The notes under the pieces were generated by a model, which saw nothing but the letters and a program-made list of their open reading frames with translations, ran no database searches and was not told the origin of the DNA. A DNA stretch of 42,915 bases from a virus. Its lineage: Duplodnaviria; Heunggongvirae; Uroviricota; Caudoviricetes. The stretch covers positions 1 to 42,915 of the IMG/VR virus record IMGVR_UViG_2579779116_000016; one strand, 5' to 3'. The position numbers and the translations under genes are program-made. Below, piece after piece: positions 23,032-35,922 of the stretch (the stretch's first letter is position 1; each line of letters begins with the position of its first letter).

Positions 23032-23469
23032 TCATCGAAGGCATTGCGTCCTGATGTATTCCTGCAGGTAGTTAACCTGCGCGGTTATCCTGTCGATTCC
23101 ACTTCTGAGACGGTAATAATTGAGTTCAGCATCTGCTGTAAGTCCTGGGTTTTCTCCATCGCCCATGCCGCTGGCTCCGGTCGTTGACTTTGCACAGGTG
23201 GCGGCGACTTGCAGGCGCTTACGCCCAGCAGAAACATCAGCACGGAGACTTTCGATAGTCGCGTTAGCATCAGCAAGCTCCTTTGTGTATCTGGCGTCGA
23301 GTTCTGCTACATCACGTTGACGCTTCTGCATGTCAGCGATTGTGGATGTGGCCTTATCGCGCTGCTCTTTGTAGGTCATGGCGTTATCACGGTAATGATT
23401 AACAGCCCATGACAGGCTGACGATGATGCAGATAACCAGAGCGGAGATAATCGCGGTGACTCTGCTCAT
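23032..23469 (-). CDS. Rz: Spanin, inner-membrane subunit Rz
   Basis: 145 aa; N-terminal [32 protein letters not shown], coiled coil; close to lambda Rz. Confidence 0.9.
23085..23276 (-). CDS. Rz1: Spanin, outer-membrane lipoprotein subunit Rz1 (embedded in Rz, +1 frame)
   Basis: Embedded ORF with lipobox LLGVSAC followed by Pro-rich segment [16 protein letters not shown], as in lambda Rz1; exact start uncertain (first or third Met). Confidence 0.8.
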
Positions 23470-23942
23470 ACCTCAATCTCTCTGACCGTTCCGCCAGCTT
23501 CTTTGAATTTTGCAATCAGGCTGTCAACCTTATGCTCGAACTGACCGTAACCAGCCCCCGGCAGTGAAGCCCAGATATTGCTGCAACGGTCGATTGCCTG
23601 ACGGATATCACCGCGATCAATCATCGGTAAAGCGCCACGCTCTTTAATCTGCTGCAATGCCACTGCGTCCTGGCTTTTCGGAGAGAAGTCTTTCAGACCA
23701 AGCTGCTTACGGTAGGCATCCCACCAACGGGAAAGAAGCTGATAGCGACCGGCTGCTGTTGATTTGAGTTTTGGGTTTAGCGTGACAAGTTTGCGAGGGT
23801 GATCGGAGTAATCAGTGAATAGCTCTCCGCCTACAATGACGTCATAACCATGATTTCTGGTTTTCTGACGTCCGTTATCAGTTCCCTCTGACCACGCCAG
23901 CATATCGAGGAACGCCTTACGTTGATTATTGATTTCCACCAT
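23466..23942 (-). CDS. R: Endolysin, lambda R-type lytic transglycosylase
   Basis: 158 aa, [51 protein letters not shown]..., near-identical to lambda R by recollection. Confidence 0.95.
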
Positions 23943-24249
23943 CTTCTACTCCGGCTTTTTTAGCAGCGAAGCGTTTGATAAGCGAACCAATCGAATCAGT
24001 GCCGATGTAGCCGATGAACACGCTCGTTATATAAGCGAGATTGCTACTTAGTCCGGCGAAGTCGAGAAGGTCACGAATGAACCAGGCGATAATGGCGCAC
24101 ATCGTTGCGTCGATTACTGTTTTTGTAAACGCACCGCCATTATATCTGCCGCGAAGGTACGCCATTGCAAACGCAAGGATTGCCCCGATGCCTTGTTCCT
24201 TTGCCGCGAGAATGGCGGCTAACAGGTCATGTTTTTCTGGCATCTTCAT
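23926..24249 (-). CDS. S: Holin, lambda S-type with dual-start (MKM) motif
   Basis: 107 aa [39 protein letters not shown]..., near-identical to lambda S107; two in-frame ATGs separated by a Lys codon. Confidence 0.95.
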
Positions 24250-32003: not shown

Positions 32004-32720
<717 letters not shown>

Positions 32721-32806: not shown

Positions 32807-33712
32807 ATGTCGATTAACAGCAATAGCGAATCCCTGCATCAAATGCAGCTTTTCCCTGTAGTAGAGGTTGTTTCTGATGATATTCCTATGGGCGTTCTCA
32901 ATGATGGAACTCCTTACCTAACTCTCTACGGTCTCGCAAAGTTATGCGGCATTGATGACACGCCACTGAGGGTGTTCACATCAAACTGGAACACAGAGAA
33001 AAACAAACCCAGAGGTCAAAAAGTAGCTGCGTATTTAGCTGAGAAAGGGTTTCATAACGTCGAAAAGCTATACACTCGCGTTATAAATAGCTCAAACGTG
33101 GAAACTCATGCTTATCCTGACTATGTTTGCATGGCTATCCTCCGTTACTACGCTCTAGATGCCACCAATTTTGATAGGTCAGTCGCAATAGGTAATTTTG
33201 TTCGCTTGGCTGAGTACACGCTTAAGCGAATGATTTATGAAAAGTCAAATTACAACCCAAATGCTTCAATAGATATCTCATTCGAGAACTATAGAGCAAG
33301 GATTAAACTAAACGATCAGATACCGACAACTCATTTTGCAGTATTCAGAGAGATAGCTGACATTGCCATGAACCTGATCGGAGGAGGATTCCCAATGGAT
33401 GACACCACATCTTTGGATGGAAGTGTTGGAATTCACTGGGGAAAGTATTGGACAGCTAATAGGCTATCTGAGAAATTCGGGGAAAGGGTGCAGTACCAAC
33501 ATCTATTCCCCGAAAATTACAGGCAGTCAGCTGCAAATAAGCATATAACAGCTTGGATTTATCCTATTGAGGCACTTGGCGTGTTCAGAAAATGGCTACA
33601 CGATAATTACGCAATGGAAAAACTGCCAAATTACCTTGGGAACAAAAAGATTAGTAACGCCTCCGAGCTATTAGAGTCGATAAAAAAACCAGCACTCCCA
33701 AATAAGCATTGA
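32807..33712 (+). CDS. Uncharacterised 301-aa protein occupying the rexA/rexB slot downstream of cI; candidate lysogen-expressed exclusion/defence gene
   Basis: AT-rich ORF 87 bp after cI stop, followed by an intrinsic terminator and oL/pL; N-terminal ~120 aa weakly resemble a Bro-N-type domain (DG.PY...LAKLCGI...), C-terminal half unassigned. Confidence 0.7.
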   Translation: MSINSNSESLHQMQLFPVVEVVSDDIPMGVLNDGTPYLTLYGLAKLCGIDDTPLRVFTSNWNTEKNKPRGQKVAAYLAEKGFHNVEKLYTRVINSSNVETHAYPDYVCMAILRYYALDATNFDRSVAIGNFVRLAEYTLKRMIYEKSNYNPNASIDISFENYRARIKLNDQIPTTHFAVFREIADIAMNLIGGGFPMDDTTSLDGSVGIHWGKYWTANRLSEKFGERVQYQHLFPENYRQSAANKHITAWIYPIEALGVFRKWLHDNYAMEKLPNYLGNKKISNASELLESIKKPALPNKH

Positions 33713-33904: not shown

Positions 33905-33967
33905 AACCATCTGCGGTGATAAATTATCTCTGGCGGTGTTGACATAAATACCACTGGCGGTGATACT
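33905..33967. promoter_or_regulatory. Left operator oL3-oL2-oL1 and pL promoter
   Basis: AACCATCTGCGGTGATA, TATCTCTGGCGGTGTTG, TACCACTGGCGGTGATA with TTGACA (33939-33944) and GATACT (33962-33967); lambda-type. Confidence 0.85.
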
Positions 33968-34006: not shown

Positions 34007-34037
34007 TGCTCTTAAAAATTAAGCCCTGAAGAAGGGC
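34007..34037 (+). promoter_or_regulatory. nutL (boxA and boxB hairpin GCCCTGAAGAAGGGC)
   Basis: boxA-like GCTCTTA followed by the lambda boxB stem-loop at 34023-34037. Confidence 0.7.
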
Positions 34038-34220
34038 AGCATTCAAAGCAGAAGGCTTTGGGGTGTGGTGAAGCTCAACGGCGAGCTAGGGAATAGTTTT
34101 GCGGTGAAGATTCTAGACAACTAACCGCAGGATGCGCGTAACCCAATCGGCAGCGCACCGATGGAAGCTGGTTCGACTCCAGCCACCACACCACCAAAGC
34201 TAACTGACAGGAGAATCCAG

Positions 34221-34556: not shown

Positions 34557-34922
34557 ATGGAAGAACAAGCAAACAAGATTCTCGTAGAACTACTGCAAAA
34601 AGCCAGCAATGGAATAGACGCGGCTGTTTCATTTAGCCAGGCACAGATTCCTGATGTCATCCATCAGCTTTTGATGTGGCACGCCGTATCATCAGCTGGA
34701 ATTCAGGCTATCTGTGTATTGGTGATTATAGCGTGTGTTTATCTGATGATTTTTGCATGGAATAAAGGAGATGATGCAGATATTGTTATTTTATCACTAC
34801 TTGTCACATCAGGAATAGCGATTACTTCTATTGTTGTTTTCTTCAATTATTTCGACTGGCTGAAAATTTGGCTTGCTCCAAAACTTTACCTTATCGAATA
34901 TGCAGCATCATTGGTTAAGTAA
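34557..34922 (+). CDS. Small two-TM membrane protein immediately downstream of N (ral/sieB slot)
   Basis: 121 aa; hydrophobic segments AGIQAICVLVIIACVYLMIFAW and IVILSLLVTSGIAITSIVVFF; starts 4 bp after N stop. Confidence 0.6.
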   Translation: MEEQANKILVELLQKASNGIDAAVSFSQAQIPDVIHQLLMWHAVSSAGIQAICVLVIIACVYLMIFAWNKGDDADIVILSLLVTSGIAITSIVVFFNYFDWLKIWLAPKLYLIEYAASLVK

Positions 34923-35110
34923 TTTCAGGACGCATAGTCGGCCTTTATTTTTGGCACAAACAACAGAATAAACACTGCACTGTGTATTCATTCCAACGAG
35001 TGAATACACGGAGCAATGTCGCTCGTAACTAAACAGGAGCCGACTTGTTCTGATTATTGGAAATCTTCTTTGCCCTCCAGTGTGAGGGCAATTTTTTTGA
35101 CGGAGGATAT

Positions 35111-35422
35111 ATGAAATTACGTGTCTGGCATATCCCGCAAGTACCTATGAAACCGTTCATTGTAGAAGTGGCAAGTGTTGAAGAGGGTGTTCGCCTGATG
35201 GACGCACTGGCTGATTATGACGCCTTTCAGTATGACAACAACATCAAGCCTGATTACTGCAATGCTAACGGCCTTGAGATGTGGGATGAGAGCCTTACCG
35301 ATGAAGATTTATCAGAGATGGGGCTTACTGATCGCTGGGTGGATTGGTACAGCGAATGCCAATGTTACGACGACCCACGTAAATATCTCGAAAGCCTGAA
35401 AGAAGAAACATCAGCCGCCTAA
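35111..35422 (+). CDS. Small acidic protein (about 103 aa), pL operon
   Basis: ATG at 35111 with GGAGG RBS; 23 Asp/Glu versus 9 Lys/Arg by count; no family assigned. Confidence 0.5.
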   Translation: MKLRVWHIPQVPMKPFIVEVASVEEGVRLMDALADYDAFQYDNNIKPDYCNANGLEMWDESLTDEDLSEMGLTDRWVDWYSECQCYDDPRKYLESLKEETSAA

Positions 35423-35497
35423 GCGCGGCTTTACCGCATACCAATAACGCTTCACTCGAGGCGTTTTCGTTATGCAATCAAACAGAAGGAGCATCCT

Positions 35498-35668
35498 ATG
35501 CAACAGTTCGCTATTGCAGGGGCGGCATCGGTTCGCCCTTTCAACCCGATTTTATCGGTACAGCATTCACGAAAAAATATTTTAACCGGAGCAGACTTTA
35601 AACAACCAAGAATGAAAAGTTTGCTCGAAAAGCTTTGGGATATTTTGAAACAACAAGGCCGTCCATGA
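35498..35668 (+). CDS. CIII-like small protein (candidate FtsH inhibitor)
   Basis: 56-aa ORF with AGGAG RBS, MQQFAIAG...SLLEKLWDILKQQGRP, resembling lambda CIII (MQYAIAG...SLLERI...LIDILNQPG); below ORF-track cutoff. Confidence 0.5.
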   Translation: MQQFAIAGAASVRPFNPILSVQHSRKNILTGADFKQPRMKSLLEKLWDILKQQGRP

Positions 35669-35835
35669 GTTTTACAGATAACTGGTCAGACGAAGAATTC
35701 ATTCGTCAGATGAAAGAATTAATCGGTAACGAAGGAGATATTCATGTCACTTGCAACCACAGTGAAGGAGAGCAAGTTACAGAGGCGCATGTACACGCAG
35801 CAGGCGTTAATGTATCGCCAGAAGGGAGATCGTGA
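35665..35835 (+). CDS. Small hypothetical protein in the kil position
   Basis: ATGA overlap with preceding stop; 56 aa MSFTDNWSDEEFIRQMKELIGNEGDIHVTCNHSEGEQ... Confidence 0.35.
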   Translation: MSFTDNWSDEEFIRQMKELIGNEGDIHVTCNHSEGEQVTEAHVHAAGVNVSPEGRS

Positions 35836-35922
35836 AGGTGTTCGCGTATTTTTGAATGCGGCAAAGACTGAAGTATTAAATCAGCGTTATTTCCTTGGGC
35901 CGTGTCCATTCTGAGGTGAATT

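Follow-up and report, generated by a model that had tools for sequence, protein, structure and literature searches.

In phages P22 and CUS-3, the interval between the antiterminator gene N and cIII is a variable accessory slot of the pL operon that carries ral and sieB. The P22 operon runs in the order 24, ral, orf78, orf87, 17, c3, kil, arf, erf; sieB, on the opposite strand, is placed between 24 and ral. Ral modulates type I restriction-modification enzymes. The stretch of DNA considered here (the window, 42,915 nucleotides (nt)) is IMG/VR record IMGVR_UViG_2579779116_000016, positions 1 to 42,915, and comes from a phage whose head and tail genes are P22-like and whose immunity region is that of lambda. 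Its early-left operon lies on the plus strand, and two open reading frames (ORFs) of this pL operon lie between N and cIII: one encodes a membrane protein and the other a strongly acidic protein. The initial annotation had described them as the first two genes after N, in the position of ral and sieB, with products of 121 residues with two hydrophobic segments and of about 103 residues with a net charge of about -14. All of this agrees with the ORF check, the N36 match of the gene in front, the pL and nutL sequences upstream, Kyte-Doolittle hydropathy, the charge of -14 over 103 residues counted from the ATG at 35111, and the presence of ral and sieB in the same slot in P22 and CUS-3. Both ORFs are real genes, with 574 homologous protein clusters for the membrane protein and 246 for the acidic protein. 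The comparisons below identify the acidic protein as the ortholog of P22 gp17, with a counter-defence role by analogy, and place it next to an unrelated membrane protein gene that moves independently of it.

The acidic protein matches Pfam family PF17420 at 7.3e-56 (186.8 bits against a cut-off of 25), with residues 1-98 aligned to profile positions 1-98 of 98. By tblastn it is 88.3% identical to P22 gp17 over all 103 residues, and 100% identical to the protein of a Stx1a-converting phage. Pfam scans returned PF17420 only, and NCBIfam and PADLOC scans returned nothing. The gene starts at ATG 35111, where GGAGG lies 5 nt upstream and where the family alignment and the homologs all start. The mechanical ORF opens further upstream, at TTG 35057 (35057-35422); this start was rejected, as it has no usable Shine-Dalgarno sequence and the added stretch reads through a terminator hairpin. 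Read from the ATG, the protein has 23 acidic residues (D+E), 9 basic residues (K+R) and an isoelectric point of 4.1. The P22 protein is also 103 residues long, and in both phages the gene lies immediately upstream of cIII in the pL operon, with a terminator at its 3' end and the same leader layout. The two loci differ in the gene upstream: in P22, sieB, ral, orf78 and orf87 lie between 24 and 17. Judged by its sequence, 35111-35422 is the ortholog of P22 gene 17, and the acidic protein is already known as a well-catalogued ortholog of a classical gene.

Information on the function of gene 17 comes from two secondary sources on P22. The RefSeq note for the P22 gene (NC_002371) reads "allows growth on phage Fels2 lysogen", and PMC4837284 states that P22 gene 17 brings "release of exclusion" and names Fels-1 as the excluding prophage. 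Both sources describe protection of an infecting phage from a resident prophage, so that, by analogy with P22, gene 17 is a counter-defence gene. The phenotype on record is escape from exclusion, the opposite of what the family's label, "superinfection exclusion", says. PF17420 is titled "Superinfection exclusion gene product 17" in Pfam, and the name "superinfection exclusion protein" also appears in PHROGs, RefSeq and many phage records. If the label were correct, the protein would keep other phages out of the cell. This is very improbable given that the note on the founding member says the reverse, that gene 17 is under pL with terminators on both sides, such that expression in a lysogen is not expected, and that the family is common in virulent phages. 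Virulent carriers include Ackermannviridae (e.g. Det7 gene 56) and N4-like Gamaleyaviruses (St11Ph5), and there is also a homolog in a Bacillus phage; in all of these groups the gene is always found among early or middle genes. The early or middle position in virulent Ackermannviridae and N4-like phages fits a protein that serves the infecting phage. Two metagenomic homologs carry a 50-residue N-terminal extension with a GxxxxGK[ST]-like motif.

The gp17 family comprises 246 clusters and is uniformly acidic, with net charges from -8 to -17 and a median of -14 in 48 diverse members. Conserved acidity of this kind allows nucleic-acid mimicry, and T7 Ocr, ArdA, Ugi and several Acr proteins are likewise small and strongly negative. 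An Ocr- or ArdA-type protein would fill the groove in which type I or type III restriction enzymes bind DNA, and such an anti-restriction factor would suit a net charge of -14 in 103 residues that is conserved as acidity across the family, in a gene occupying the slot that holds ral in related phages. The helix at residues 23-42 of gp17 is acidic at positions 24, 25, 31, 35, 37 and 42; all six positions are acidic in at least half of the 48 members, and three of the six in at least 80%. However, the invariant residues of the family are mostly aromatic or hydrophobic (V5, P9, Q10, F16, L33, Y36, D37, F39, Q40, K46, D48, Y49, N51, W76 and W79) and include a KPDYxN loop motif, which resembles a specific binding site more than an array of charges. 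No sequence or fold similarity to Ocr, ArdA, Ugi or the Acr proteins was detected, and the only profile matched in Pfam, NCBIfam and PADLOC is PF17420 itself. Ral of lambda and P22 is also a small accessory protein of the pL operon that sits in the same slot and aids the phage against a host barrier, but it has no sequence relationship to either protein of the window (hhalign of the gp17 family against P22 Ral gave a probability of 0.04%), P22 carries both ral and gene 17, and the gene 17 phenotype in P22 concerns a resident prophage rather than restriction-modification. A DNA mimic directed at restriction enzymes is accordingly a rather improbable description of gp17. The initial annotation had proposed an anti-restriction or anti-defence factor of the DNA-mimic type: the anti-defence part is in keeping with the counter-exclusion recorded for the P22 gene 17 family, the anti-restriction part finds nothing beyond the conserved acidity, and the profile comparison shows no relationship to Ral.

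The AlphaFold2 model of gp17 (predicted local distance difference test (pLDDT) 92.9) has the order beta-beta-alpha-beta-alpha-beta-alpha, with the KPDYxN loop between the first helix and the third strand. The compact fold shows weak resemblance only to small alpha/beta proteins of the inhibitor or immunity type, and no known DNA mimic was among the structures that weakly resemble it. A sequence-profile search of the PDB with the family gave no match, and Foldseek against BFVD returned only members of the same family, all uncharacterised. The literature searched, including that on anti-defense and on Fels-2 (with the primary P22 papers outside the search), yielded no report on the target or mechanism of gp17. 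The picture that these features suggest is of a small, very acidic alpha/beta protein that would be made early in lytic growth and, by analogy with P22, would allow phage growth in cells otherwise closed to it by a resident prophage. The likeliest way to do so would be to bind one-to-one to an exclusion or defence protein encoded by the prophage and inactivate it. Direct, stoichiometric inhibition of this kind is a possible mode of action, to which we give somewhat less than even odds.

The gene upstream of the gene 17 cassette starts 3 nt past the stop codon of N, with GAGGGGTGA in front of its ATG. The 121-residue product has hydrophobic segments at about residues 43-68 and 76-99 and a grand average of hydropathy of +0.90. 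It matches PHROG 3054 over its full length (residues 1-121 on profile positions 1-137 of 137), and a relative with 52% identity is named "Gene 34 protein", after Sf6, in one source. The closest described relatives are the Sf6 gene 34 protein, CUS-3 ECRS218_0047 and Oslo gp47, which share PHROG 3054 (8e-52 for the CUS-3 protein), the N-to-cIII slot and the conserved termini; they differ in being only about 50-55% identical and in having a loop between the transmembrane (TM) helices that is 15-30 residues longer than in the window protein. The gene abuts N in the window, whereas it follows ral in CUS-3 and sieB in sal4 and Oslo. An intact copy of the 121-residue ORF with 99.2% identity is present in phage HK633 (NC_019719; positions 2193-2558 of the HK633 stretch analysed as locus L001, plus strand), where it was missed in annotation: the record has an in-frame truncated gp42 (2382-2558) and, overlapping in another frame, gp43 (1883-2272).

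The family to which the membrane protein belongs is very large. An exhaustive profile search found 4,709 cluster representatives (50% identity) at E <= 1e-3, 1,946 of them at E <= 1e-10. The best 150 of the 4,709 representatives are 103-184 residues long and nearly all match over their full length, and exactly two hydrophobic segments were found in 132 of 150 sequences (the window protein and 149 representatives). Among phage records, 181 genomes carry the family, and these include temperate and virulent phages of many Proteobacteria. The lambdoid members lie between N and cIII. The virulent carriers include phi92-like myoviruses, N4-like Schitoviridae, many Vibrio phages, Pseudomonas phage Bjorn and a Ralstonia jumbo phage, and in virulent phages the gene lies among early, DNA-metabolism, replication or recombination genes. 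No consistent neighbour was found across eight phage contexts. Conservation, expressed as the mean for the top residue, is 0.61 in the first ~42 residues and 0.76 in the last ~22, where the consensus is WLKIW-APK-YL-EYAA-L-K; it is 0.21-0.31 in the TM helices, and the helices together with the intervening loop vary in sequence and in length (0.17-0.31). Because the termini are conserved and the TM hairpin is free to vary, function seems to reside in the termini, with the hairpin as their anchor. Four helices make up the AlphaFold model (pLDDT 69.8). Searches for a described relative were negative: the window protein had no match in Pfam (E <= 0.1) or NCBIfam and nothing meaningful in PADLOC, 41 members of the family had no convincing match to any Pfam family, a sequence-profile search of the PDB gave no match, and Foldseek against BFVD returned the protein's own family only, all members of which are uncharacterised.

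Evidence that the two genes are separate cassettes comes from their distribution. The membrane gene occurs without gene 17 in Salmonella P22-like phages, CUS-3 and Oslo. Gene 17 occurs without the membrane gene in P22, and in Stx phages and E. coli GDSC2239PM it lies behind a different gene, of 156 residues (phrog_1636). At the DNA level, the membrane gene is 98.9% identical to that of Salmonella P22-like phages without gene 17, and the gene 17 block together with its leader shares about 96% identity with that of Stx phages. The junction of the membrane cassette falls right at the ribosome-binding site, GGTGATATATG. The GC content of the membrane gene is 38.5%, compared with 51.4% for N and 46.7% for the window, a value typical of acquired cassettes. 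Gene 17 is present in 135 of 5,426 complete E. coli genomes, and the membrane gene in this allele is found at full length in 43 and at least in part in 226; the exact combination of both genes was absent from the phage records and the complete E. coli genomes searched. The membrane gene and gene 17 are unrelated accessory genes, each mobile independently in the variable slot between N and cIII. The idea that they form a functional pair was rejected, as each is found without the other in many phages.

The gene 17 cassette includes its own leader, in which a 10-bp hairpin, a conserved box and an intrinsic-terminator-like hairpin precede the gene (Table 1). The leader hairpin and the box are identical in Stx phage PA28 and in E. 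coli GDSC2239PM. In P22 (about positions 2227-2373 of the stretch analysed as locus L009, minus strand), the layout and the box are kept, but the sequences of the hairpin and of the terminator with its T-run differ. Since P22 keeps the layout with different hairpin sequences, the structures of the leader appear to matter more than their sequences. A terminator is annotated at the 3' end of gene 17 in the P22 record. The leader could serve for plain N-dependent gating, or it could be a regulatory leader (an attenuator).

The arrangement of these signals bears on when the two genes would be expressed. A consensus scan of the plus strand from pL (33939-33967) to 35671 found no further promoter-like site. 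The first strong terminator-like hairpin after pL is the one in the gene 17 leader (35070-35098), and because it lies beyond the membrane gene, the unmodified pL transcript would yield N and the membrane protein only. The genes from gene 17 onward should need RNA polymerase modified by N, given the terminator-like hairpins on both sides of gene 17. The membrane gene lies on the repressor-controlled pL transcript without a promoter-like site of its own, and is thus expected to be silent in a lysogen, which argues against a SieB-like prophage function for its product. Judged by this context, the gene looks like an early lytic gene rather than an exclusion gene expressed from the prophage.

The initial annotation had suggested that the membrane protein is an exclusion factor. 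It would then be a superinfection-exclusion or abortive-infection protein that blocks DNA entry of a second phage, acting either in the lysogen, like SieB, or early in infection, like T4 Imm. T4 Imm, a small inner-membrane protein made early and having two hydrophobic segments, keeps the DNA of superinfecting phage out of the cell. The window protein would resemble it in being small, early and membrane-bound, and a role like that of Imm early in infection can be reconciled with the presence of the family in virulent phages. The analogy is one of function only; no Pfam family, Imm included, was matched meaningfully by 41 members of the membrane family, and the window protein itself matches no Pfam family in a library that includes exclusion and immunity families. 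Support for the SieB-like variant comes from position: a small two-TM inner-membrane protein is encoded in the slot of sieB in P22 and some Salmonella phages, and SieB of lambda and P22 is likewise membrane-associated and encoded in the same N-proximal region. However, P22 sieB encodes 192 residues on the opposite strand and has a promoter of its own that allows expression in the lysogen, whereas the window gene is on the pL strand with no such site; hhalign of the family alignment against P22 SieB gave a probability of 0.2%; the members in sal4 and Oslo adjoin sieB and do not replace it; and strictly virulent phages commonly carry the family. Weak PADLOC matches to generic "2TM effector" models (E 0.05-0.08) are at chance level. 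Of the proposal in the initial annotation, the SieB-like half is contradicted by the profile comparison and by the expected silence in the lysogen, while an Imm-like early lytic role may still apply; taken as a whole, an exclusion factor is unlikely.

A second alternative is that the membrane protein is a holin, an antiholin or another factor in lysis timing. Class II holins have two TM helices and charged termini, and the window protein, being small with two TM helices and charged termini, shares this general build. While the architecture is compatible with a lysis factor, other observations make such a function highly improbable: a complete holin/endolysin/Rz cassette is encoded elsewhere in the window (23032-24249), only one of 41 family members touches a holin model in Pfam (E = 0.15), and, unlike in holins, the TM helices are the least conserved part of the protein. 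Moreover, the earliest transcript carries the gene, and its relatives in virulent phages are found with replication and recombination genes rather than with those for lysis.

The distribution and conservation of the family are also compatible with a third proposal, that the 121-residue protein belongs to a new class of immediate-early membrane effectors, very widespread among phages, whose conserved terminal helices target a conserved component of the bacterial inner membrane. The protein would sit in the inner membrane, with its conserved N- and C-terminal helices held there by the freely varying TM hairpin. Its synthesis would begin as soon as the cell is infected or the prophage induced, with none in the lysogen, and the preferred guess is that its termini bind a conserved partner associated with the membrane of the infected cell while the phage grows lytically. 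The effect could be to protect the envelope of the infected cell, or to counter a membrane-acting host defence, for which there is a parallel in T4, where rII counters Rex. The effector class is a tentative proposal with odds clearly below even, and any one specific role for the protein is more doubtful still.

The identities of both genes, their status as independent cassettes and the part of gene 17 in counter-defence, taken jointly, are given a probability of roughly 0.7. Several points weigh against this interpretation, or against the roles proposed for the membrane protein. The two secondary sources on gene 17 are in conflict over the excluding prophage, which is Fels-2 in the RefSeq note and Fels-1 in PMC4837284. 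The timing of expression is derived from consensus scans for promoters and terminators only, and a weak terminator-like site lies inside the membrane ORF (34651-34667). The termini of the membrane protein, which are its conserved part, are modelled at a pLDDT of about 50. Its topology is ambiguous by the positive-inside rule, with an acidic N-tail, a basic loop in the long-loop members and a mildly basic C-tail. Finally, no named member and no reported function of the membrane family turned up in anything searched, and ten distant members are all called "hypothetical protein".

Table 1. Positions in the window of the two genes, their control signals and neighbouring features.
Feature	Position	Strand	Basis or remark
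cI repressor, lambda-like	32007-32720		lies before the gene in the rex position
pL promoter with lambda-type operator sequence	33939-33967	+	TTGACA, 17-nt spacer, GATACT; promoter scan, 10/12 matches
nutL (presumed)	34008-34037	+	boxA-like GCTCTTAA at 34008-34015; boxB GCCCTGAAGAAGGGC at 34023-34037; exact motif positions
Antiterminator N, 110 residues	34221-34553	+	Pfam N36, 1.6e-26; annotated N in matching phages
Two-TM protein gene, 121 residues, PHROG 3054 (Sf6 gp34-like)	34557-34922	+	ORF, hydropathy, phrog_3054 9.7e-47
10-bp hairpin GTGTATTCAT...ATGAATACAC	34982-35009	+	leader of the gene 17 cassette
Conserved box GAGCAATGTCGCTCGTAAC	35011-35029	+	directly after the leader hairpin
Intrinsic-terminator-like hairpin TTGCCCTCCAGTGTGAGGGCAA, then seven T residues	35070-35098	+	terminator scan; ends 12 nt before the gene 17 start codon
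P22 gene 17 ortholog (by sequence), 103 residues	35111-35422	+	PF17420, phrog_1510, 88.3% identity to P22
Terminator-like hairpin AACGCTTCACTCGAGGCGTT, then TTCGTT	35446-35471	+	downstream of gene 17
cIII homolog	35498-35668	+	phrog_550 CIII, 1e-22; downstream limit of the variable slot
Rz (lysis cassette)	23032-23469	-	
Endolysin (lysis cassette)	23466-23942	-	
Holin (lysis cassette)	23926-24249	-	

The leader of N carries a further element that may be the more interesting feature of the region. Downstream of the boxA and boxB motifs at 34008-34037, which we take to be the lambda nutL motifs, a tRNA-like cloverleaf RNA of ~135 nt (34060-34197, plus strand; fold z = -3.5) lies between nutL and N. 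It has an acceptor stem, a D arm, a T arm with GGTTCGACTCC, and a long arm that replaces the anticodon arm, and it includes a conserved variable-arm hairpin, ATCGG-CAGCGCA-CCGAT. ARAGORN called no tRNA in the window copy and Rfam found nothing there at E <= 0.1; a looser Rfam scan gave a weak tmRNA match, well below the gathering score. In Pantoea phage PdC23, the copy is matched by the Rfam tRNA model (37.4 bits), and 45 nt stand where the anticodon loop would be. The RNA is present in 93 phage records, and it adjoins a true tRNA gene in Skate and Akira, the two Skate-like phages examined. At least 120 IMG/VR contigs contain an exact 22-mer of the RNA, placed either directly in front of N-like genes or 100-230 nt upstream of holins. 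RNAalifold supported 34 pairs in 26 diverse copies, with compensatory changes in 12 of the 34. The hexamer in the apical loop (34112-34117) is palindromic in 67 of 73 unique variants (ACTAGT, TCTAGA, TCGCGA, GCTAGC, ACCGGT), and the remaining six have UCUGGA, which can pair with itself through G-U. This self-complementarity at the RNA level suggests a kissing-loop dimer.

Neighbouring genes on either side of the slot show further variation. The rexAB position downstream of cI holds a 301-residue gene (32807-33712, plus strand) that encodes a homolog of the abortive-infection protein BstA (phrog_6287 8e-133; PADLOC BstA 7.7e-106); Pfam and NCBIfam scans of this protein gave no match. Other E. 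coli prophages that share this cI and N have quite different genes in the position, for a Clp-fold serine protease, a Ser/Thr kinase, or P63C, PIN or KilA-N proteins. Between cIII and the gene for a Rad52-like recombinase, two ORFs of 56 residues each overlap in different frames (35665-35835 and 35744-35914, plus strand). They match PHROGs 2123 and 1723, both labelled "recombinase", and this label has probably been carried over from neighbouring genes.

The finding is mostly ordinary, and the understanding of lambdoid phages is unchanged by either gene. Gene 17 is one of the oldest genetically defined phage counter-defence genes, and its family proves to be mislabelled as exclusion, uniformly acidic and spread into virulent Ackermannviridae and N4-like phages. 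These three properties make gp17 a ready candidate for anti-defence screens. The membrane protein family is one of the larger phage families without a Pfam model or a named member. If its members are indeed immediate-early effectors, they would bar further phage DNA from the cell or disarm membrane-acting abortive-infection systems.

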